Positions 7,056 through 56,578 of a stretch of DNA of 64,000 bases are shown here, in pieces. A program made the position numbers and the translations under genes. The DNA lies in IMG/VR virus record IMGVR_UViG_3300027708_000013; one strand, written 5' to 3'. The DNA is from a virus (lineage: Duplodnaviria; Caudoviricetes). Below the pieces are notes generated by a model. The model saw only the letters and a list, made by a program, of their open reading frames with translations. It made no database searches and was not told where the DNA came from. The first letter of the stretch is position 1; each line of letters opens with the position of its first letter.

Positions 7056-8366
7056 TCATATCTTTTCTCCAATGTCAAATCCACGGAATCCTTTGAATCT
7101 CGGAAACCTCAAACTGAACGATCCGTCTTGATTTTGCGTAACAGCATCTGCACGTACTTCCACAATATTACCGATAAGGTTATCCCGACCGGCCCAATAA
7201 GCAATGCGATCAGCATCTGTAAGTCCGCTTCCGACATTTGTGCTAATAAGTCTACCATCATCTACTCCTTCTACAATTAATGCACCCAGTCGGCCTAGAT
7301 TCTTACCTGTGCCTTCTTCGGTACCCGTCACTGTTAATGATACTTCAATGTACGGCTTGAGTTTAAGCCAAGCCACTGTGCGTTTGCATTGATATCCTGC
7401 CGCAGGGTCTTTGATCATGATGCCTTCGTAACCGCCTGCCACTGCTGATCTATTGATTTCACGAAAGCGAAGTTGTCCTTGCTCGGTGTCTAAATCCACT
7501 AGTTCCTGTGCCAACGCTGTGACATTGGGCATGTGATCCGCAATGGGTTCAATCCACGCACGAAGTTGATTACTGCGTTGATGCTGAGTGCGAACACTGG
7601 CTCCTGACAGAAATTCTTTCAATGTCAGTATATCAAACAGATTCAATACTGCATCTGCACTTTCAATATTGCTTTTGCGATGTACTTGACGCATGAGGTC
7701 TTGGAAGCTCGAACTCATTACTTCACCATCCAACACCATAGGTTCACGAAATAACTTGGCGTGACGTGCAATTTGTTGGCAAATGTGTGGGAAGTTTACC
7801 AGTTCCTTGCCATTACGGCTATACTGATTAACAACCCCGTCTGGATAAACAATAGAGATAACTCTAACGCCGTCCAATTTAACTTCCACGAGCTTTTGGC
7901 CCGAAACCTTTGATTCGTGATTACTGCTATCATGAGCAAGTTGACAACTGAACACAGGGATAATATAATCGACATACGTTTTCTCCACAACAGAATTGAT
8001 TGTTTTTTCACTTACACCACAGCGTAAGTCCTTGATTAAAATTCTACGGTACCACTGATTCCACTCCTGTTCAGTGGCCTTGAGTCTCATGTGATTCACT
8101 GCTGTGATTGCGGCATTGCCAGTCAATCTACGTTGAGATAAATCTTGTGCTGTTTTCCAAAACACATCTGCATTGAGACCTGGACCTGAATCAGACTTGG
8201 TTTCTACCTTTCGAATACCATAAGTGATCATGCTGTCCAGTGCCGCACGGGCTCCACGAAAGAATTCTGTGTTGCCGGCTTTGGCTTCACGTGCCACAAC
8301 AGATTCTTTAAACAAGCGACTGTTATCGCTTTCTAATTCCCCAACAACTTCCCACGGTTTTAACAT
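7056..8366 (-). CDS. ATP-dependent DNA ligase
   Basis: EVKLDGVR adenylation motif, VLDGE, EGIMIK, WLKLK, LRFPRF; AGGAG SD before the ATG at 8366. Confidence 0.95.
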   Translation of the reverse strand: MLKPWEVVGELESDNSRLFKESVVAREAKAGNTEFFRGARAALDSMITYGIRKVETKSDSGPGLNADVFWKTAQDLSQRRLTGNAAITAVNHMRLKATEQEWNQWYRRILIKDLRCGVSEKTINSVVEKTYVDYIIPVFSCQLAHDSSNHESKVSGQKLVEVKLDGVRVISIVYPDGVVNQYSRNGKELVNFPHICQQIARHAKLFREPMVLDGEVMSSSFQDLMRQVHRKSNIESADAVLNLFDILTLKEFLSGASVRTQHQRSNQLRAWIEPIADHMPNVTALAQELVDLDTEQGQLRFREINRSAVAGGYEGIMIKDPAAGYQCKRTVAWLKLKPYIEVSLTVTGTEEGTGKNLGRLGALIVEGVDDGRLISTNVGSGLTDADRIAYWAGRDNLIGNIVEVRADAVTQNQDGSFSLRFPRFKGFRGFDIGEKI

Positions 8367-11303: not shown

Positions 11304-12269
11304 TTATTCTATGTTTTTGCTCACGTTTTTAAGCAATTTTAAGGTCTGGGATTGGGTGTTTGCCAACTGCTCAAACGTACCGCCCGGGTTTATAATACCA
11401 ATTGCTTTTAATCTTTCAGCATACACTGGATTTTTAAGTTCTTGATTTATTAAATTGTTGATACGTGCTCTGGCCGAAAGAGGTGTATCTGCAGGTGCAT
11501 ACACGCCATACCAAATGTTTAAGCCCAGTTCTGGATGTAAATTGGACAACACTGGTACAGTTACGGCAGGATTCAATTCATGCACCAGTCTAGAACCTTC
11601 AGGTGTCAGCGCCGCAATGATTTTAATTTTACCCGACATCCAAGCCGGACGCATGGTGCTCAACACATCAAAGGCAAAGTCTACATTGCCGCCTATTAGG
11701 TCTGTCAGTTGTGGTGCACCACCTTTGTAATTGATAATCTGTGGCATAGGTAATTTTTCCAACTTGGCCCACAGTGTAAAGAGATTTGCAGTGTTTTTAT
11801 TCCAGTAGGCCACATTGAACCGTTGAGGATTTTTACGCACATAATCTTTTAGTTCTGCATAGGTGTTGACAGCACTGTTGGCTGGAACAGCCAACACCAT
11901 GGTACTGATGCCCAAGGGTACTACAGGATCAAAACTAGATTCTGTATATTCAATGCCGTCTGATCGAGTCTTGAATGCTATGTTGCTGTCCAAGAATCCA
12001 GTGCCGCCCATGAACAAGGTATGTCCATCAGGCTTGGCCCGTGCCACAAAGTTTGCGGCTATGACAGTGTCTGCCCCGGGTCGATTTACAACCACAGCTC
12101 GCCATCCGTTGTTGGCAAACATTTCCTCGACGATACGAGCAACACGATCACTGTTACCACCCGGCGGGTATGCCACCACAATCTCAATGGGTCGCTTGGT
12201 TGGGTCAAACTCAGCCACAGCTGACAGTGATGTCAATAATGCTATGGCGATGATAATTCTTTTAAACAT
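11304..12269 (-). CDS. Bug/TctC tripartite tricarboxylate transporter substrate-binding protein
   Basis: Signal peptide, YPPGGNSDRVAR, VVNRPGA, PDGHTL, YKGGAPQLTDLIGG, WYGVYAPADTP. Confidence 0.9.
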   Translation of the reverse strand: MFKRIIIAIALLTSLSAVAEFDPTKRPIEIVVAYPPGGNSDRVARIVEEMFANNGWRAVVVNRPGADTVIAANFVARAKPDGHTLFMGGTGFLDSNIAFKTRSDGIEYTESSFDPVVPLGISTMVLAVPANSAVNTYAELKDYVRKNPQRFNVAYWNKNTANLFTLWAKLEKLPMPQIINYKGGAPQLTDLIGGNVDFAFDVLSTMRPAWMSGKIKIIAALTPEGSRLVHELNPAVTVPVLSNLHPELGLNIWYGVYAPADTPLSARARINNLINQELKNPVYAERLKAIGIINPGGTFEQLANTQSQTLKLLKNVSKNIE

Positions 12270-13411: not shown

Positions 13412-14578
13412 TTAACGATTAAAAAGATTGTAATTACCGGTATCGTATTTTTTATTACATCTGTAAAAACTAAGCATGTGAGTGGAGTAGGTTATTGCAT
13501 CTCGAACTCGAAGCCATTGCGGCGTAGTATCGTCTACAAATTGATTCAACCCTATTTCTAAAGTAAAACGTATTAGATCCAATAGTACTTTTTTACTCAA
13601 CGCATAACCACTATCTTGTATTTGATACACACTGGTGGTTGGCATGACTGGATTAATATCATTGTGTTCTTTGACATTGTCGGAGGAAAGTTGATCTAAC
13701 CCTGATTCCCACATTATTTTTAAGGCAGATATTTCTAATAATATAGACTTTAATTTATACACCAACACAGGATCTTGAACCTCGGGACATTTTGATAATT
13801 CGTCATAGAGACCAATGATGACGCCCAAATGCACAGTGACCCAACATTGTCTTACAAAGTTTCCCCACGGATATGTGGGATCCGAGCGTGGATTTGTTTT
13901 TAATATATAGCAATCATCTGTACCCACTGGCAGTGGTTCATGTAGGGTTAAAATTCCTGGCGCTGCTCCTTTCATTCCCACAGCAGTTGGACTTTCTGTT
14001 CCATCGGTTCTCGAATGTTTGATTTTATTTAAATTTAAATAAACAACATATATTGAAACTTCTGCATTGTGTTGACTGTGTTTATGTGCATAACTGACTT
14101 GCGGAGCACCTGTTTTTGGTACTTCTATCACACAAATGTCAGCGGATTTTAAATTACTTACCCAACATTTTGTTCCAGGAAGTAACATGTTTGTGTCTGT
14201 ATCGTAACGTATAGTATCTGCGGCACGACTACTTGAATAGCAACAAATCGTTTCATGATATGCACAAGATTTCAACAGACGATCGCCGGCTCGGTCGGGT
14301 ACAAGGCTGACAGCTAATCTGGATTTATGATTGTGTTGAACACAGTGTGCCATGGATAAATCGCGTTGGGCAACATACATTAAATTGTAGTAGAAAATTT
14401 TCTTTTCCGCATTAGTTGCTGTTGCAAAATCAAAATCAAAAAACGGAGCTAAAATCTTAAGATTTTTTTGAAAGTCGCTGTTGTCTTGTAAAGATTCTAT
14501 GGGAAGGTTTAATTTTTCTAGAAGTTTGATATTTTTGAGCATGACAAGAAAGAGTATGTAAATGTATTTAGTTTGCAC
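13412..14578 (-). CDS. acyl-CoA dehydrogenase-like flavoprotein (divergent)
   Basis: GTKCWVSNLKSAD resembles GxKxWITN..AD; GMKGAAPG resembles GMRG; start may be the ATG at 14542. Confidence 0.45.
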   Translation of the reverse strand: MQTKYIYILFLVMLKNIKLLEKLNLPIESLQDNSDFQKNLKILAPFFDFDFATATNAEKKIFYYNLMYVAQRDLSMAHCVQHNHKSRLAVSLVPDRAGDRLLKSCAYHETICCYSSSRAADTIRYDTDTNMLLPGTKCWVSNLKSADICVIEVPKTGAPQVSYAHKHSQHNAEVSIYVVYLNLNKIKHSRTDGTESPTAVGMKGAAPGILTLHEPLPVGTDDCYILKTNPRSDPTYPWGNFVRQCWVTVHLGVIIGLYDELSKCPEVQDPVLVYKLKSILLEISALKIMWESGLDQLSSDNVKEHNDINPVMPTTSVYQIQDSGYALSKKVLLDLIRFTLEIGLNQFVDDTTPQWLRVRDAITYSTHMLSFYRCNKKYDTGNYNLFNR

Positions 14579-14590
14579 TGTGAGGGTAAC

Positions 14591-14612
14591 AAAAAACCCG
14601 CCGAAGCGGGTT
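14591..14612 (-). terminator. intrinsic terminator of the tmRNA
   Basis: AACCCGC-TTCG-GCGGGTT followed by a T-run. Confidence 0.85.
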
Positions 14613-14921
14613 CTGCTATTTTTGGTAATAAGGTATAACTACCCCAGAGATCATGCCGCTAGGGCGTAAACCTCATCATTAGATGCGTTTGCATTTATCG
14701 ATTTGCTTGATTTACAGTCATCGCCTACTGTGTTGCCGTCTCCATTACCTACCCCTGTCGAAACCATGGCTGGCCCATCAGAAGAAAACTCAGATCCTTT
14801 CACGGTTGGCTCCATTACTGGTTGGCCGCAGTATGCATCCTGCTGAATTTTCTTTTGGTGGACCAGGCGGGAGTCGAACCCGCGTCCAGAAGTCCTTCAC
14901 TTTGAAGGAATTACAACAATT
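14613..14921 (-). ncRNA. ssrA: two-piece (circularly permuted) tmRNA
   Basis: Acceptor piece with T-arm GCGGG-TTCGACT-CCCGC and CTGGTCC-A-CCA ending at 14856 comes first; 5' GGGCCAG starts at 14776 and gives a G3.U70 acceptor stem; tag at 14651-14692 encodes ANASNDEVYALAA*. Confidence 0.92.
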
Positions 14922-14924
14922 CTT

Positions 14925-15071
14925 TTAATTATAACCACGTATGACATTGTTGTCAATGGGTGGATTTGATCTTGCCAATTCTCGTTTAACAGCTTCTTGA
15001 TGTTGCTGTTCTTTTTTCTGCTTGTTCTGTTCAAACTTCTGAAGTATCACAACTTCTTCTTTGTGTGGCAT
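14925..15071 (-). CDS. small hypothetical protein
   Basis: 48 aa, MPHKEEVV...; CTAAATA box 8 nt above the ATG. Confidence 0.45.
   Translation of the reverse strand: MPHKEEVVILQKFEQNKQKKEQQHQEAVKRELARSNPPIDNNVIRGYN
14928..14956 (-). promoter_or_regulatory. consensus sigma70 promoter for the tmRNA
   Basis: TTGACA-17-TATAAT. Confidence 0.9.
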
Positions 15072-15108
15072 AGTATAACTATTTAGTATAGATAAATGCA
15101 GGAGTGTC

Positions 15109-15366
15109 GTATTTCGGAGTCTTCCGCTAAGAAGTCCTTAACCATTGACACGGTTATGTCAGGACTGTGTGATGGTCCACTCAGCCCGCCTAGTCAACAC
15201 GTCTGTCAACGATACCCGTAGTTTCCTCTCCTACACTTACCTATACTAGATAGGATCCCGGGGGGTTCGAGTCTCACCGGGGTCGACATGCAAGTTTTGT
15301 AGACGTTGTTTCAAGCGAGCGAATTTCTTCGCCTCTACCGGAAGGCATCTCCCTTTCGCTGATACC
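15109..15366 (-). ncRNA. unclassified structured RNA candidate
   Basis: At least 8 nested helices found by eye, including long-range CUUCCG/CGGAAG, UCGCUU/AGGCGG and ACGUCU/AGACGU; no ORF of note. Confidence 0.6.
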
Positions 15367-15369
15367 GGC

Positions 15370-15705
15370 TTATTCGCCCATTACTTCCTGTGCAATAGCA
15401 CGAGCCTTAATGGCTTCTAAACTTGGCTTGGCAATTTTGGTCTTGGTTGACTTGACCACTGCTGAACCGTTGTACTTTTCATCAGCGGCATCAATCGCGG
15501 CACGATAATCTGCATTGGCATACAACTCAGTACCTTTTAAGAAAGTTACCAACTCGCCTTTGGTCATTGCTGAAGGCAAATCCATAAGATTGATATCGCT
15601 ATCAGTTTTTGCCAAGATTTTAACACGAGTCATGTCATTCGCAAAACGAACTTTGTACTGACCTTGAGTCTTGCTAACACCACCTACTTTGAACTGTTTG
15701 TCCAT
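15370..15705 (-). CDS. hypothetical protein
   Basis: 111 aa; AGGAG SD; own promoter. Confidence 0.8.
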   Translation of the reverse strand: MDKQFKVGGVSKTQGQYKVRFANDMTRVKILAKTDSDINLMDLPSAMTKGELVTFLKGTELYANADYRAAIDAADEKYNGSAVVKSTKTKIAKPSLEAIKARAIAQEVMGE

Positions 15706-36931: not shown

Positions 36932-37242
36932 TGGACATTGTAGAACTGGTAAACAAATATGGATTCCCTGTTGTAATGATGGTGGGCCTGGGCTATATTA
37001 TAAAATATGTATGGGAATGGGCAACAAAAGAAGTTAAACCTGTTATCTCAGATGCCAACACTGTGCTTATTGCACTGATTGACCGTATTCGTATGTTGGA
37101 CAACGATCTTATCAGATTGAATCAAAAGGTCAATACTGTGTTACACTTACGTGGCAAAAGCATCGAGCATGAACGTGTAGCAGCTGAACGAGAAATTAAC
37201 AAAACTGTTGATGATCGAGAAGCCTCGGGCGGTAACGGTTAA
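36931..37242 (+). CDS. small membrane protein, paralog of 36471..36752
   Basis: TM helix plus LIDRIRMLDNDLIRL. Confidence 0.7.
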   Translation: MDIVELVNKYGFPVVMMVGLGYIIKYVWEWATKEVKPVISDANTVLIALIDRIRMLDNDLIRLNQKVNTVLHLRGKSIEHERVAAEREINKTVDDREASGGNG

Positions 37243-39252
37243 TTACTTGCTGGTGGCACGGTAGGTGCCTGACCAGTCTTTAGGCACACCTTCTGCCAAT
37301 CTCAAGCTCATGCTTTTGTAGTACTCAGTTAACTCTGGCGATTGATTCGTACAATACTCTACCATTTGTAGTGCCTTCTTCCAGTTGCCAGCATAGTAGT
37401 GTCTTAAAAACTCTTGATGACCCAATTTAGTTTCAGCCAGTGTATAAATTTTTACACCTTGAGTTTTACCTTTTACAGCAATACAATCTAGTTCGGCTAC
37501 GGGATATGTATCTTTTACCAATTCCGCAGTGCGTTGACCAAGTACAATTTTGACACCGTACGGCTTGCTTTGTCCTTCCAGTCTACTCGCCAAATTGACG
37601 CCATCGCCCAAGCAAGTATAGTCAAAGCGTTGATCAGATCCCATGTTACCCACCACAACACTTGCACTGTTGATGCCAAGCCCCATGCCAAAAGCCGGCA
37701 CACCTTCTGCTGTAATTTCTCTATTAAATTCATCCAAACTCTCCATCATTTCCAACGCTGTGCGTACTGCGTCTACCGCATGTTGTGGGTTATCTAACGG
37801 TGCGTTCCAAAATGCCATCTGTGCATCACCAATGTATTTGTCCAGTGTGCCTTTGTTCTCAAGTATACGTTTGGTCATTGCTGTCATGTAACGATTCATG
37901 ATCTTTGTAAGACCCTGTACATCTGCTCCGTAATGTTCACTAATGGTGGTGAATCCACGCACATCGGTAAACATGATGGACAGTTCACGTTCCTCACCAC
38001 CCAAGGTCAACAGTTCTGGTTGACGCTGTAACTGTGCCACTAGGTCCGGACTTAGATAAGTTCCAAACTGCCGTTTAATCTGTTGTTTTTGTAGGAACTC
38101 GCTTACAAATTTAACACCATAGGCATGAAGCATAACCAGTACAAGGCCAGCGACCAAACCAGTAACATCAATAAGCCAATGGTACTGCGAGTAAGCCAAC
38201 TGGCTAGCAAAAACAACCCCCACAACAACCCCCACACTAGATATGATTCCCACATACATCCACCTCGTTAAAAATAGTAGTACTACTGCCAACACAGCCA
38301 ATCCCGCAAGTTCTGCACCATCTGCCCAAGCGGGTCTTTGTATATTTACACCACGAGCCACAGTTGCTATTACTGCAGCCTGTACGTCTTGTGGCCACAC
38401 AGCACCCACAGCAGTGGGCACTGGATTTGCTATGCCCGCGGCCGTAACCCCCACTATCACTATAGAATTATCGAACGTGTTGGGCAAATCTGTCATACTG
38501 ACCGCACGACTGCGTTGACTCCAGTCAATCCAAATTCTTCCTGACCTGTCAGTGTCAAGTATGCCTATACCACCGGGTCCACGCATCTTTTCAATACCCA
38601 ACTCACTCATTTTGATTTGAAAGTTAGTGTTGCCCTCTGCTGTCATCAGTGTGGCTAAACTGGCAGATGGATACAAGTTGCCATCAATTGCTACTACCAA
38701 GGGCATGCGACGAACAACACCATCAATTTCTGGCAGTGTGTTAACTATGCCCGAGCTTGCCGCAGCAAACTCTAAAGCAGGAATGTTTGCTATCATGCCG
38801 GGATAAGTGACTATGAGTTCGCCGTGATTGCTTCCAATAACGCTGGAGCCGGGTGGGCGTGGTGTGTTTTTATTTTGACCTGCAGGAATGTTGCTGAGTA
38901 CTACCGGATACTTCTTCAATACTTGAATCAGTGCGGCATCACCACCGGATCTATCCCGTTCACTCATTACAATGTTAAACACCACTAAGCCGGCACCTCT
39001 TTTGTAAAGGTCTCGGATCAAGTCAGCATACACACGCCGATCAAAAGGATACTGCCCATGCTGTGCTAGTGCGGCTTCGTCTATATTAATTGTGTAAATG
39101 TTGTTTAGTGTGGGTGCTTTGGCAGTGATTACAGTGTCAAAATATCTTAGTCTTACACTTTCAACAAATGTAGGATCTGCAATTCTAACGGCCAACACTA
39201 GTGCCAGTGTAAGCAAGGCTGTCCAAGGTGAGGTTAATATTTTTTTCATCAT
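37243..39252 (-). CDS. CHASE2-domain class III adenylate/guanylate cyclase
   Basis: INIDEAAL...PFDR (CHASE2), three TM helices, MFTDVRGFT, DKYIGDA, YTCLGDGVNLASRLE. Confidence 0.93.
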   Translation of the reverse strand: MMKKILTSPWTALLTLALVLAVRIADPTFVESVRLRYFDTVITAKAPTLNNIYTINIDEAALAQHGQYPFDRRVYADLIRDLYKRGAGLVVFNIVMSERDRSGGDAALIQVLKKYPVVLSNIPAGQNKNTPRPPGSSVIGSNHGELIVTYPGMIANIPALEFAAASSGIVNTLPEIDGVVRRMPLVVAIDGNLYPSASLATLMTAEGNTNFQIKMSELGIEKMRGPGGIGILDTDRSGRIWIDWSQRSRAVSMTDLPNTFDNSIVIVGVTAAGIANPVPTAVGAVWPQDVQAAVIATVARGVNIQRPAWADGAELAGLAVLAVVLLFLTRWMYVGIISSVGVVVGVVFASQLAYSQYHWLIDVTGLVAGLVLVMLHAYGVKFVSEFLQKQQIKRQFGTYLSPDLVAQLQRQPELLTLGGEERELSIMFTDVRGFTTISEHYGADVQGLTKIMNRYMTAMTKRILENKGTLDKYIGDAQMAFWNAPLDNPQHAVDAVRTALEMMESLDEFNREITAEGVPAFGMGLGINSASVVVGNMGSDQRFDYTCLGDGVNLASRLEGQSKPYGVKIVLGQRTAELVKDTYPVAELDCIAVKGKTQGVKIYTLAETKLGHQEFLRHYYAGNWKKALQMVEYCTNQSPELTEYYKSMSLRLAEGVPKDWSGTYRATSK

Positions 39253-45755: not shown

Positions 45756-45784
45756 ATTATACTGGGTTATTTGGCGGTTGTCAA
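45756..45784 (-). promoter_or_regulatory. consensus sigma70 promoter, probably leaderless
   Basis: TTGACA-17-TATAAT-6-ATG. Confidence 0.85.
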
Positions 45785-46249: not shown

Positions 46250-47671
46250 TTATTTTCCTTGAATATTATTTTGATCTTTGAGAAATGCGTATAACAATAT
46301 CTGACCACTGGGTTTTATTCCTGTAAGAACAGCTGGCAAATTAAAATATTTTACACTCTCAACACAATGTTCCGGGGATACATTTTTAGCAATTGACTCA
46401 TTGAGTACAGCAAGATCGGTATTCAATGTCGAATCAAACAATGCCAAATAGATTTTGTTATTAGTAAAATCTGGAACCAATTGAAAATTAGTTGGATGGT
46501 AACAAGTACGTAGGTAATTTTCTAACTCTTGTATATAAACAGTCTTATTGTCTATAGTAAATGAATATGTACGACCTTGATAGAACAACTTATCATCATC
46601 CTCTACAAACCCATCAGCAAGTGTGTGCCATTCGTACCCAGTTCTCCGAGCATGAACAAGATTTTTTTCTAGTATAAATTCCAGACCAGGTGCACGTTCA
46701 GTAAACAAGTTATTTACATAATTCCTATAATTACTTTTTGTCACTCTCGAAATAAACATGGTACCTATTTCGCTACAACCAAATTGATTTATAATTTCTT
46801 TGGGATTAATATTTTCAAAAATCCAACTGCAAATATTTGCATCATATCCACGCAAAGTACGAATTGATAACTGGCCTCCCATATCTATAGGAGTTGTTTG
46901 ATCAAAATAATTAACCCATTCGTAGGGAATAATAATAGTAGTTAGTTTGTACTTTTGAATATAAGGCAGTACTAAATTTAGATAATTTTTTGCATTATAA
47001 TTTTCTCCAGTAGTAGCAGATGTCATGGTCCTGATAAAATAGTGTTCTGTTGCAACACTTAATAGGGGTAACGCATAGTCGATAAAAAGTGCCCCATGAT
47101 GGAAAGTTTTAAAATGAAAAGGACGATCTTTATCATTGTACCCGTGAAATGACGCTATTTCTCTTGTGCGATCAATTAAGTGCCGATGTGTAAAATCAAC
47201 TATTTTTGGCCTACCTGTTGTGCCGCTTGTGTGCGTTTTTATAGCCACAGTTGACGTAGATATCTCTATGCAGTCGCTATCTTCGTATTGATTAGCATTA
47301 TTGTAATTGCGTAAATTAATTGATGGCGTATCAAATGAGTTGACTGATCTCGAGGTTGCGGGGTGTGGTATTGATAAATCGATAAAATTATAAAAATCTT
47401 TGAATTCTGGTATTTGAGTAAAACCAACATTGAGATCGTGTACAAATAAATTACCGCCTAACTCCCATACAGCCAGTATTATAGGCACTACCCAATCAAA
47501 ATCATTGATGCCTACATAAATTGTTTTACTGTATGTATTGTCATTTAGTTCTTGACGTATTTGTTTTTTAAGAAAACATTTACGGTTTTGTATCTCTGAG
47601 GGGTTGATTTTTTGGCCAAAAAAATCAACCAATGAACAATCGTCCCTAATTAACTCTGATGCATTATTCAT
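46250..47671 (-). CDS. divergent adenylate-forming (ANL/acyl-CoA ligase-like) enzyme
   Basis: HTSGTTGRPK (A3), FGCSEIG (A5), D..YQGR (A7/A8); AT-rich. Confidence 0.7.
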   Translation of the reverse strand: MNNASELIRDDCSLVDFFGQKINPSEIQNRKCFLKKQIRQELNDNTYSKTIYVGINDFDWVVPIILAVWELGGNLFVHDLNVGFTQIPEFKDFYNFIDLSIPHPATSRSVNSFDTPSINLRNYNNANQYEDSDCIEISTSTVAIKTHTSGTTGRPKIVDFTHRHLIDRTREIASFHGYNDKDRPFHFKTFHHGALFIDYALPLLSVATEHYFIRTMTSATTGENYNAKNYLNLVLPYIQKYKLTTIIIPYEWVNYFDQTTPIDMGGQLSIRTLRGYDANICSWIFENINPKEIINQFGCSEIGTMFISRVTKSNYRNYVNNLFTERAPGLEFILEKNLVHARRTGYEWHTLADGFVEDDDKLFYQGRTYSFTIDNKTVYIQELENYLRTCYHPTNFQLVPDFTNNKIYLALFDSTLNTDLAVLNESIAKNVSPEHCVESVKYFNLPAVLTGIKPSGQILLYAFLKDQNNIQGK

Positions 47672-48597
47672 TGGTTGACCTGAATACCTTGTTGTTCGAT
47701 AAATTTCCGGTTATCATTGATTGTTTTTATAATAAAACGATTAAATTCGTTTGCATTTCTGGTCCAAATTTTACCATGTACTATTTCGACTATTTCTTTT
47801 ACTTCCGGAGTTTGTAAAGCCTGCATAATATCAATTTGTATTTGTTTGGCTTTATCTTTTGCTATTGATTTATTAATAAAAAATGCAATTTGTCCGTTAC
47901 TTATATTAAATTTATCACCAAAAAATTCTTGTGCAGTGGGCACATCAGGAAACGCAGGATCCTGTTTTTCAGCTGTTGTTGCTAACCAATTTAATTTACC
48001 ACTGTTACGATATTGTTTAGTAGATCCAATGCTTCCGCATGAAAATGCCAGTTCGCCGCCGGCTACATCGGCGAACCATTGGCTGTATTCTTTATACGGC
48101 ACGTGAGTAACTGATAGGCCTAACATTTTTGCCACTTCGATGCCGCAAAAATGTCCGGCAGAGCCAACCCCCCATGACCCGTAAAAAGGCCTGTCTTTAA
48201 TGATTGTACGTAAATCGTCTAGCGTTCGAATTTTGTTGTTGGTAAATATCACCCAATCATTACTATAAAATGGTGCCAATACTTGTAACTTTGCAAATTG
48301 TTCTTCTTTGTTATACAGTATAGGCATGGTACTCCAGGCACCATGATCAAGCATTAATATAGTGTGATTACTTGCAGGTTCGTTAACGTAATAGTTCAGT
48401 GCTACCACCCCTGCAGCACCGGGTCGATTTTCAATTAATACTGGGGTATTCCATTTAATAGTGAGTACTTCTGCTAACTTTCGTGCCACTGTGTCTGGTG
48501 CAGAACCCGTTGGTAGATTTAAAACTATTCTAACAGGTTCTGCGTGTGCAGACGCAACCAATAGTAAAGTTATTAAAAATTTTAATATACTTTTCAT
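47668..48597 (-). CDS. Bug/TctC substrate-binding protein
   Basis: Signal peptide, PTGSAPDTVAR, IENRPGAAG, YGSWGVGSAGH, HVPYK, PDVPT. Confidence 0.9.
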   Translation of the reverse strand: MKSILKFLITLLLVASAHAEPVRIVLNLPTGSAPDTVARKLAEVLTIKWNTPVLIENRPGAAGVVALNYYVNEPASNHTILMLDHGAWSTMPILYNKEEQFAKLQVLAPFYSNDWVIFTNNKIRTLDDLRTIIKDRPFYGSWGVGSAGHFCGIEVAKMLGLSVTHVPYKEYSQWFADVAGGELAFSCGSIGSTKQYRNSGKLNWLATTAEKQDPAFPDVPTAQEFFGDKFNISNGQIAFFINKSIAKDKAKQIQIDIMQALQTPEVKEIVEIVHGKIWTRNANEFNRFIIKTINDNRKFIEQQGIQVNQ

Positions 48598-55261: not shown

Positions 55262-55898
55262 TGTATTGACCCTCGAGTATCTTATAATATTTAACACTTT
55301 GTTTTTTTAATTTACTTACTATAGAATGATGTGTACCGAATGCATCACAGTAATTAGTATACATAACAGTGGAGTCTAATGCAAGACTTTTTCCTGATCT
55401 TAACACATGGGCTTGTTCGGCTGCTATGGTAAATGCGTAGGCATCAACTTCGTCTCCGTGTCCGAGATACTCTTGTAGATCCCGGGCATCACTGTCTTGA
55501 CAGGTACTGCGAAAACTTTTACCAGGACGAAAATCTCTGTCGCGGTGTTGATGCAGGTGTACATACTCGTGTCCCAGTACCGAGGCCACATCAAAGCACA
55601 ATTGATTCCATCGAGTGCGAGTCAAGGACCCGCCCATGACAAAATGTTTTTTCTTTTTAAAATAGGCCAACTCAATTTCTATCGGACGGTATCCCCATTG
55701 GTCATCGCCGTAGTCGTACAAGCCCGACACTGTGATGGAATTCAAGGCACAGTTGATGGTTAGGTTTGTTAAAAAAACAACGTCCCGGTAAGGGACGTTT
55801 CGTTCGATCAATCGTGTTATGGCCGCTGGAGTGAACTCGCGGCCTTTGTTTGTATCATACAGTGCTTCCAGTCGATCCAACAGTTGAAAATAGTTCAT
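55224..55898 (-). CDS. hypothetical zincin-like protein
   Basis: LGHEYVH (HExxH) and EVDAYA. Confidence 0.55.
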   Translation of the reverse strand: MNYFQLLDRLEALYDTNKGREFTPAAITRLIERNVPYRDVVFLTNLTINCALNSITVSGLYDYGDDQWGYRPIEIELAYFKKKKHFVMGGSLTRTRWNQLCFDVASVLGHEYVHLHQHRDRDFRPGKSFRSTCQDSDARDLQEYLGHGDEVDAYAFTIAAEQAHVLRSGKSLALDSTVMYTNYCDAFGTHHSIVSKLKKQSVKYYKILEGQYNEQNSTAGRQSR

Positions 55899-56578
55899 TA
55901 GTGTCTATCAGTGTAAAATGTGTGTCCACCAATTCTAGCAATCCATGTCATGGTGTTGCTCCATACCGGTCTTAACCCATTGCTGTGAAAGTACAGTGCA
56001 TTGTTATATTTAAGTCTATAATCTTCGTAACCGTTATTTAACAACTCTCGGGCCACACGGCGGCTTTCTTCCCAGGCTGGATTTGTTGCACGTGGTACTC
56101 GTACAAATGCACACACCCACGAAAACTGGCACACCGGTACATGGTTGATCACTGTGTGAGTTTTTGTAATCGATTCAGGTCTGCCAAACCATCCCACATG
56201 TACTATTTCTGTTTCTTTAATCACTGTGCTGCGAACTGTTACTGTGCGTTGTTTTACCACTGCACAGATTGTTTTACCAAATCTGCCATCGTGTACACGA
56301 TTGATAGTAACTATGCCCACTGCCACTTTGCCTTCTTCACTTTCAGCGCCGGCTTCAAAATAAATGTTTCTAGTTAAACATTCTTCATCTTGTGCGGTTA
56401 TTGGAAATGTGACCCAGGGCTGGGTCAATGTGCGGACTAGAGATTCAATTTGATCGCGTCCTTGATTGATGAAACTGCTTGCCACTGTTATTTCTTTTGC
56501 TTCTATTTCTTCTGCATGACCGAGTGCCATTACGGTCAGGGCTAATACTGCAACGATGATATTTGCTATCGTTCTCAT
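55898..56578 (-). CDS. SleB-like cell wall hydrolase (Hydrolase_2)
   Basis: CLTRNIYFEA, AVGIVTINRV, CQFSW, ALYFH, IGGHTFY; signal peptide. Confidence 0.9.
   Translation of the reverse strand: MRTIANIIVAVLALTVMALGHAEEIEAKEITVASSFINQGRDQIESLVRTLTQPWVTFPITAQDEECLTRNIYFEAGAESEEGKVAVGIVTINRVHDGRFGKTICAVVKQRTVTVRSTVIKETEIVHVGWFGRPESITKTHTVINHVPVCQFSWVCAFVRVPRATNPAWEESRRVARELLNNGYEDYRLKYNNALYFHSNGLRPVWSNTMTWIARIGGHTFYTDRH

Follow-up and report, generated by a model that had tools for sequence, protein, structure and literature searches.

What does a phage gain, and what does it reveal about its host, when its DNA encodes the two halves of a transfer-messenger RNA (tmRNA) in swapped order? The question is raised by a 64,000-nucleotide stretch of viral DNA (Duplodnaviria; Caudoviricetes; IMG/VR record IMGVR_UViG_3300027708_000013), here called the window, in which an earlier note, made from the sequence alone, had recognized a phage-encoded circularly permuted (two-piece) tmRNA. 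Window 14591-14956 on the minus strand is a complete circularly permuted tmRNA gene with its own promoter and terminator; its 3′ acceptor piece, with CCA at the end, comes before the 5′ piece, which starts with G1 and bears the tag reading frame. ARAGORN called a permuted tmRNA (tmRNA*) at 14560-14948 with the tag ANASNDEVYALAA, and two Rfam models matched over their full length, i.e., RF01850 (beta_tmRNA; 157.8 bits, E 1e-48, cut-off 84, model positions 1-331) and RF04321 (tmRNA_permuted; 138.5 bits, cut-off 47). RF01850 was the best-scoring model of its clan, lower overlapping matches from the same clan being dropped, and its promoter positions align with the promoter found in the window. 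One check that the earlier note had proposed, ARAGORN or permuted covariance models, hence came out in favor of a permuted gene, with both models passing their cut-offs and the pairing not rejected. The tmRNA signal and structure are far beyond chance; the earlier observation is confirmed, and the interpretation attached to it is partly supported. We place at roughly 80% the probability that this is a functional-looking two-piece tmRNA gene of the betaproteobacterial structural type, carried as a self-contained cassette by an uncultured freshwater jumbo phage.

The evidence that carries this reading comes first of all from the structure. Pairing was scored on the structure read from the window gene, in an alignment of 18 sequences comprising the window, 11 IMG/VR phage genes, Xanthomonas phage XacN1, Stenotrophomonas phage Moby, and four bacterial beta-type genes. 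In this alignment, 89% of cells paired, compared to 72% in shuffles and 42-49% when the partners were slid, and compensatory changes on both sides were found in 32/47 pairs. An alanine tRNA-like domain is present, with a 7-bp acceptor stem containing G3.U70, a discriminator A, CCA, and a T-arm. Both the acceptor stem (three compensatory positions) and the T-arm were 100% paired with compensatory changes, and G3.U70 was invariant in all 18 sequences. The two pieces are joined by a long-range P2 helix, its outer part 100% and its inner part 99% paired, with eight covarying pairs. The layout around the tag is also that of the beta type: a P3 hairpin precedes the tag (93% paired, compensatory change in 4/4 pairs), and a single pseudoknot and a terminator follow it. 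The pseudoknot stems were 73-80% paired with compensatory changes in both, and the hairpin in the RF01850 model matches stem 2. An unpaired UGAU precedes G1 in most of the aligned sequences. The parts named in the earlier note, namely, a consensus promoter, an acceptor piece with a T-arm and CTGGTCC-A-CCA, GGGCCAG with a G3.U70 pair, the tag frame, and a terminator, were all recovered at the positions given in Table 1.

Table 1. Coordinates of the permuted tmRNA gene and its parts, numbered along the window
Feature	Position	Strand	Details and basis
Sigma-70-type promoter	14928-14956	minus	-35 TTGACA 14951-14956, 17-nt spacer, -10 TATAAT 14928-14933
Acceptor piece (3′ part of mature tmRNA)	14856-14921	minus	ARAGORN, Rfam, direct reading, covariation
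P2 3′ strands in acceptor piece	14914-14918; 14887-14893	minus	TGTTG; ACTTCTG
T-arm	14867-14883	minus	GCGGG-TTCGACT-CCCGC
3′ acceptor strand, discriminator, and encoded CCA	14856-14866	minus	CTGGTCC, A, CCA
Intervening segment, predicted excised	14777-14855	minus	79 nt
Spacer closing stem	14843-14853 with 14783-14793	minus	11 bp, AGAAAATTCAG/CTGAGTTTTCT
Coding piece	14591-14776	minus	Rfam, direct reading, covariation
5′ acceptor strand	14770-14776	minus	GGGCCAG, pairs with CTGGTCC to give G3.U70
SmpB-region motif	14757-14769	minus	CCATGGTTTCGAC
P2 5′ strands	14751-14757; 14731-14735	minus	
P3 hairpin	14715-14730	minus	
Tag reading frame	14651-14692	minus	Resume codon GCA, ANASNDEVYALAA, stop TGA; ARAGORN and direct reading
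H-type pseudoknot 3′ of stop codon	14615-14643	minus	Stem 1 GGTA/TACC; stem 2 loop GTTA with TAGC 14615-14618
Intrinsic terminator	14591-14612	minus	Stem AACCCGC/GCGGGTT, loop TTCG, then U-run

The gene is bounded by signals of its own. Its promoter matches the consensus at 12/12 positions, and perfect TTGACA-N17-TATAAT sites occur three times in the window, against 0.08 expected by chance. The two others lie at 7941-7969 (plus strand) and 45756-45784 (minus strand), and all three begin with TTGACAAC; they are probably early promoters of the phage. Transcription of the tmRNA gene is predicted to start near 14920-14921, 2-3 nt ahead of the first P2 pair. At the other end, the same terminator hairpin was listed on the opposite strand in the scan, and it is therefore palindromic. 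Two open reading frames (ORFs) called across this region, one of 54 aa inside the gene and in frame into the tag (14651-14815, minus strand) and one of 81 aa overlapping the gene (14683-14928, plus strand), are likely gene-caller artefacts.

Between the two pieces lies a spacer for which the earlier note had claimed about 79 nt and a fold-back structure. Its length is exactly 79 nt, and its closing stem leaves only AA after CCA and UCUGAU before G1 unpaired at the spacer ends. The fold reached a z of -2.9, with 0/200 shuffles folding as well, and in relatives the closing stem was 85% paired, with compensatory change in 10/11 pairs. No credible gene, and no ORF led by a ribosome-binding site (RBS), was found in the window spacer.

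The phage would depend on its host to use this RNA. No smpB was found when all six frames of the window were searched with a hidden Markov model (HMM) of three bacterial SmpB sequences (best E about 4), nor did Pfam SmpB match anything in G301-G305, five related contigs of large phages of which four are rated 100% complete. Host SmpB and host processing enzymes are therefore required, as the earlier note had anticipated, and alanyl-tRNA synthetase (AlaRS), SmpB, RNase P, and 3′ trimming must all be supplied by the host. One ORF at 55898-56578 (minus strand), suspected of being SmpB on the grounds that a homologue lies within many tmRNA loci, turned out to encode a SleB-like cell wall hydrolase (Pfam Hydrolase_2). 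A Hydrolase_2 homologue is present in the tmRNA locus in 33/83 cases among the matches listed from IMG/VR, often 1-2 kb off, and lies 41 kb away in the window.

Given these parts, host RNA polymerase would transcribe the gene from its perfect sigma-70 promoter, probably early in infection, to the terminator, giving a precursor of about 330 nt in which the tRNA-like domain would form between the two halves and the spacer would stand as a stem-closed stalk. Processing is predicted to consist of a cut by host RNase P directly ahead of G1 (between 14777 and 14776) and of host 3′ trimming that exposes the encoded CCA at 14856. With the 3′ end set by the terminator, two cuts would then suffice, one at G1 and one behind CCA. 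The acceptor and coding pieces would stay joined by the acceptor stem and P2, AlaRS of the host would charge the molecule via G3.U70 and A73, and host SmpB would deliver the charged tmRNA to stalled ribosomes. Translation would resume on GCA and append ANASNDEVYALAA, a normal degradation tag ending in YALAA. The phage may thereby gain additional capacity to rescue ribosomes at a time when mRNAs of host and phage are being cut and the translation machinery is overloaded. The role of the gene is most likely an early, host-SmpB-dependent reinforcement of ribosome rescue.

Several points weigh against this reading. The middle part of P2 (CC/UC pairs, helix 2) was paired in only 74% of cells, and in the window it can fold into an alternative local hairpin, CCTTC/GAAGG. 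No covarying P4, the second stem of the first pseudoknot (PK1), was found in the relatives, and only the P3 hairpin of PK1 covaries; in the window, CGAU could pair with AUCG as P4, a partner that is not conserved in the relatives when the alignment is read by eye. Expression, processing, and tagging of the window tmRNA are predictions made from sequence, its fit with host SmpB, AlaRS, and RNase P is assumed, and the benefit to the phage is conjecture.

How unusual is such a gene among phages? The earlier note had taken phage tmRNAs to be mostly one-piece, a view that is outdated, since a count of 133 unique phage tmRNAs includes 53 unique two-piece ones, of which 50 come from aquatic phages (Buchholz et al. 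2022, PMC9004378). Their carriers include Melnitz, HTVC008M, Mosig, cyanophages, phiCbK-like phages, Moby, Mendera, and YB07 (PMC9004378), and tmRNAs are also on record in huge phages (PMC7162821). Phage two-piece tmRNAs are thus already published and are common in this phage group, and the window gene is therefore a solid but ordinary member. Melnitz, the pelagimyophages HTVC008M and Mosig, cyanophages, and phiCbK-like phages of Caulobacter (PMC9004378) resemble the window phage in being large aquatic phages with a complete permuted ssrA and no smpB, and Melnitz and HTVC008M also share a CHASE2-cyclase with it. Melnitz, a Methylophilales phage, nevertheless carries an alpha-type gene (RF01849, 106.7 bits) followed by a glutamine riboswitch, whereas the window gene is beta-type and lacks the riboswitch: an Rfam scan of 14300-15400 returned no glutamine riboswitch and no other family at cut-off. 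Its own consensus promoter further sets the window gene apart from the published phage two-piece tmRNAs.

The beta type itself was found in cultured phages. XacN1 (AP018399.1) carries a beta-type gene (RF01850, 107.8 bits), of which its record contains two copies (37231-37530 and 356026-356325), and Moby (MN095772.1) carries one at 68083-68349 (RF01850, 94.6 bits). In Xanthomonas phage BUDD (ON758385.1), a related permuted tmRNA was matched by RF04321 only (77.5 bits) and does not reach the RF01850 cut-off. Compared to the window gene, those of XacN1, Moby, and BUDD have lower model scores, long branches, and other tags and spacers, and their hosts are Xanthomonas and Stenotrophomonas. The tmRNAs of XacN1 and Moby are not annotated in their records, and in Moby a coding sequence for a “hypothetical protein” (CPT_Moby_106, 68236-68349) is laid over the tmRNA coding piece. 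In XacN1, a GOLLD RNA (RF02032, 227 bits; L279 2840-3253) was also seen about 1 kb downstream of the tmRNA.

The bacterial counterpart is the betaproteobacterial two-piece tmRNA (RF01850; Sharkady and Williams 2004, as cited in PMC9004378), which has the same gene order of acceptor piece, spacer, and coding piece. Bacterial RF01850 genes share with the window gene the break point, P2, the T-arm, the 7-bp acceptor stem with G3.U70, the P3 hairpin, one post-tag pseudoknot, and the terminator. They differ from it in that the window gene is phage-borne, falls in a phage-only clade, and has a spacer of 79 nt where the bacterial median is 28 nt, as well as a 13-residue tag with an ANAS start instead of the 10-residue ANDE..ALAA type. 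By RF01850 score, the window gene lies far below the main bacterial family (214-331 bits) and near the Pelistega group (151-169 bits; Pelistega 151, G215 169).

This likeness, together with proteins of the window that resemble the Bug/TctC family typical of Burkholderiales, would be expected if the gene had been captured recently from a betaproteobacterial host with a two-piece tmRNA and were mainly a host fingerprint, possibly a passenger gene. Bacterial genes of the beta type were indeed found in the Pelistega group and in one further family. An unrooted maximum-likelihood tree was computed over 182 columns for 78 core sequences, each joining the acceptor piece to the first 112 nt of the coding piece. 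In that tree, the window belongs to a clade of phage genes alone (99/95), the 17 rows of which are the window, 15 IMG/VR loci, and XacN1; the 23 sampled bacterial genes and one IMG/VR fragment are set apart together by a 93/85 branch. Its closest neighbors in the tree are L120, L011, and L001 (L numbers denote loci; these three are on freshwater phage contigs of IMG/VR), with a top identity of 86% to L001, and blastn against 120 bacterial tmRNA loci gave no whole-length match. The window gene is thus not nested in the bacterial Betaproteobacteria sequences of this unrooted, 182-column tree with its small bacterial sample. The single scan of bacterial contigs used a poorly chosen pattern and yielded mainly one-piece tmRNAs from Burkholderiaceae and Oxalobacteraceae, plus a single permuted one in a Pelistega metagenome-assembled genome (MAG), so that the named bacterial relatives are few. 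Beta-type genes were found in 1/151 genomes from the class of this MAG and in 4/151 from its order, making them rare in the sampled Burkholderiales, and in 22/61 genomes in one family and 4/61 in the Pelistega-like family. Genome G040 gave a sub-threshold match only, and no claim is based on it. The same structural type in Xanthomonas and Stenotrophomonas phages, and phage spacers far longer than the bacterial ones (median 85 versus 28 nt), also speak against a recent host capture, which we consider unlikely.

The Bug/TctC-like proteins remain a separate, weak hint towards a Burkholderiales host. The Bug/TctC family is expanded in Burkholderiales. In the window, a TctC Pfam match (Bug/TctC-type periplasmic solute-binding protein) was found in the ORF at 11304-12269 (minus strand), and the ORF at 47668-48597 (minus strand) matched by tblastn the same place in L011 as this TctC-like ORF. 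No permease was seen with the Bug/TctC-like ORFs of the window. The tmRNA type itself, which the earlier note had offered as a host clue, is a weak one: its nearest relatives are all from phages, and the type is also carried by phages that infect Xanthomonas and Stenotrophomonas, two genera that belong to none of the three bacterial clades for which PMC11915505 names the permuted form. Since the gene is not nested in the sampled bacteria and the type reaches such phages, the structural type says little about the host.

A second alternative concerns the tag, which might send proteins to another fate than the host tag does, through another adaptor or protease or by stabilization. Phage tags do vary widely among the matches listed, from 10 to 31 residues, with 20 residues or more in 20/83, and the tag module seems to be swapped separately from the remaining gene. 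Tags of 24-31 residues were seen in L021, L085, L092, L036, L049, L311, and others, for instance ANADTFDFSAMSFTGNTV...ALAA. The exact tag-coding string of the window is absent from IMG/VR, and the closest tags among the matches listed are ANAANDEV(Y/F)ALAA in L018, L056, and L101 and ANAANDEIFALAA in L094. However, the window tag keeps NDE..YALAA, like the ANDE(x)YALAA of betaproteobacterial one-piece tmRNAs, 62/83 phage permuted tmRNAs among the matches listed have tags ending in ALAA, and no phage adaptor or protease gene was identified adjoining the tmRNA. We therefore regard such retargeting as quite unlikely, the redirection of rescue or proteolysis suggested in the earlier note being speculative, and ordinary proteolytic tagging is the simplest expectation for a tag that retains NDE..YALAA.

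It is still less probable that the RNA acts as an inhibitor or decoy that soaks up host SmpB or blocks trans-translation. A phage precedent, the molecule of mycobacteriophage DS6A that consists of the tRNA-like domain only and is reported to act in this way, is cited in PMC4131195 and PMC11915505, and a strong promoter would raise the copy number of such an RNA. The full tag frame, resume codon, stop, and canonical YALAA end are nonetheless kept in the window and its relatives, and P2 and the post-tag pseudoknot, needless for a decoy, are maintained by compensatory change. Finally, it is highly improbable that a one-piece tmRNA was circularly permuted independently in phages, a possibility raised in the earlier note: although phage genes and the sampled bacterial beta-type genes fall in different clades, the phage genes have the break point, P2 layout, P3, single post-tag pseudoknot, and UGAU leader of the bacterial beta type, and the full-length RF01850 fit is on par with bacterial members, in the range of the Pelistega group.

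With a functional-looking beta-type tmRNA gene of a phage as the preferred reading, the phage relatives indicate how it may have been assembled. One scan of IMG/VR with a 14-nt tmRNA motif returned at least 120 loci, and at least 83 IMG/VR loci carry a permuted tmRNA by ARAGORN; IMG/VR loci rescanned with Rfam were beta-type, with 116-183 bits. Several of the permuted-tmRNA loci belong to contigs that measure 165-383 kb and have a completeness rating of 100%, two of these contigs bearing terminal repeats. Among the matches listed, homologues of window proteins were found in 62/83 loci (at least one) and 33/83 loci (at least two), and in some IMG/VR loci the ribonucleotide reductase subunits reach 80-85% identity to those of the window. 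The neighborhood of the tmRNA varies among relatives, which have it beside nrdB, a cyclase block, or tRNA arrays; L094 shares the neighboring gene of the window.

Within the gene, the nearest relative differs by module. Among the matches listed, the acceptor piece is 92-94% identical to those of L011, L001, L075, and L109, the tag region is 81-86% identical to those of L018, L056, and L101, and no contig matches the whole gene. The spacer has yet another closest match: about 93 nt comprising the spacer and its borders (window 14777-14866 versus L311 9975-10070) are 100% identical to L311, which lies, like L312, on IMGVR_UViG_3300025392_000867. Outside this segment, the L311 tmRNA gene is 83-85% identical to that of the window, with compensatory differences and a 27-residue tag, and the proteins shared by the two are 55-84% identical. 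The exact spacer string of the window was found in one JGI contig only, which is that of L311; the contig of the window itself turned up in neither the IMG/VR nor the JGI collection. The spacer looks as though it was recently exchanged as a unit, and judged from these alignments, the tmRNA gene of the window is a mosaic.

Spacers of phage genes are longer than those of bacterial ones and range from 24 to 248 nt among the matches listed, and in some relatives they hold genes. In L092, L083, L114, L102, L038, L094, and L036/L060, the spacer is filled by an AAGGAG-type RBS and a hydrophobic ORF of 23-25 codons, the stop codon of which ends 1 nt before G1; second codon positions vary least in these small ORFs. 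Longer spacer ORFs of 38-73 codons occur in other relatives, and L001, L068, L017, L039, and L099 are also listed for spacer ORFs. From these patterns, we propose tentatively, and with slightly more doubt than conviction, that the beta-type two-piece tmRNA of phages is a long-lived phage-borne lineage of exchangeable modules (acceptor piece, stem-closed spacer slot, and tag cassette) shuffled by recombination at the conserved tRNA-like segments. The window gene would then be an “empty-slot” allele whose spacer was recently swapped in (100% identical to L311, flanks about 15% different) and whose tag cassette came from another lineage, and in the relatives with gene-bearing spacers, the excised spacer would double as an mRNA. 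Of all that is described here, only this proposed modular evolution is to some degree new.

The surroundings of the gene are those of a phage. The ORFs of the window are small, packed, and largely on the same strand, and they encode a ribonucleotide reductase, an ATP-dependent DNA ligase, a nuclease, radical-SAM and sugar enzymes, and many families known from PHROG only. The best isolate matches of the ribonucleotide reductase are those of the XacN1, Moby, and BUDD phages (52-59%). The CHASE2 and adenylate/guanylate cyclase at 37243-39252 (minus strand) has 36% amino acid identity to those of Melnitz and HTVC008M, and a cyclase homologue was seen a few kilobases from the tmRNA in L021, L058, L120, and L311. 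Compared to deposited phages, window 1-25000 gave no megablast match, and the tmRNA region gave blastn matches to the T-arm only, in five records. Upstream of the tmRNA, the gene-free region at 15100-15370 (minus strand) folds no better than shuffles (z = -0.46) and matched no Rfam family at cut-off. On its plus strand, a T-arm-like GGGTTCGAGTC and a weak tRNA-like match (mascRNA, 22 bits) were seen.

The window gene adds a well-supported case of large aquatic phages that bring a ribosome-rescue RNA and rely on the SmpB of the host. The beta type is widespread in phages, among them cultured ones that infect Xanthomonas and Stenotrophomonas, and since the genes of these cultured phages stand unannotated in their records, annotation pipelines miss them or call false ORFs in their place. 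Hosts should not be predicted from the structural type of a phage tmRNA. Finally, the modular, mosaic make-up of these genes and their expanded spacers suggest that phages evolve tmRNA differently from bacteria.

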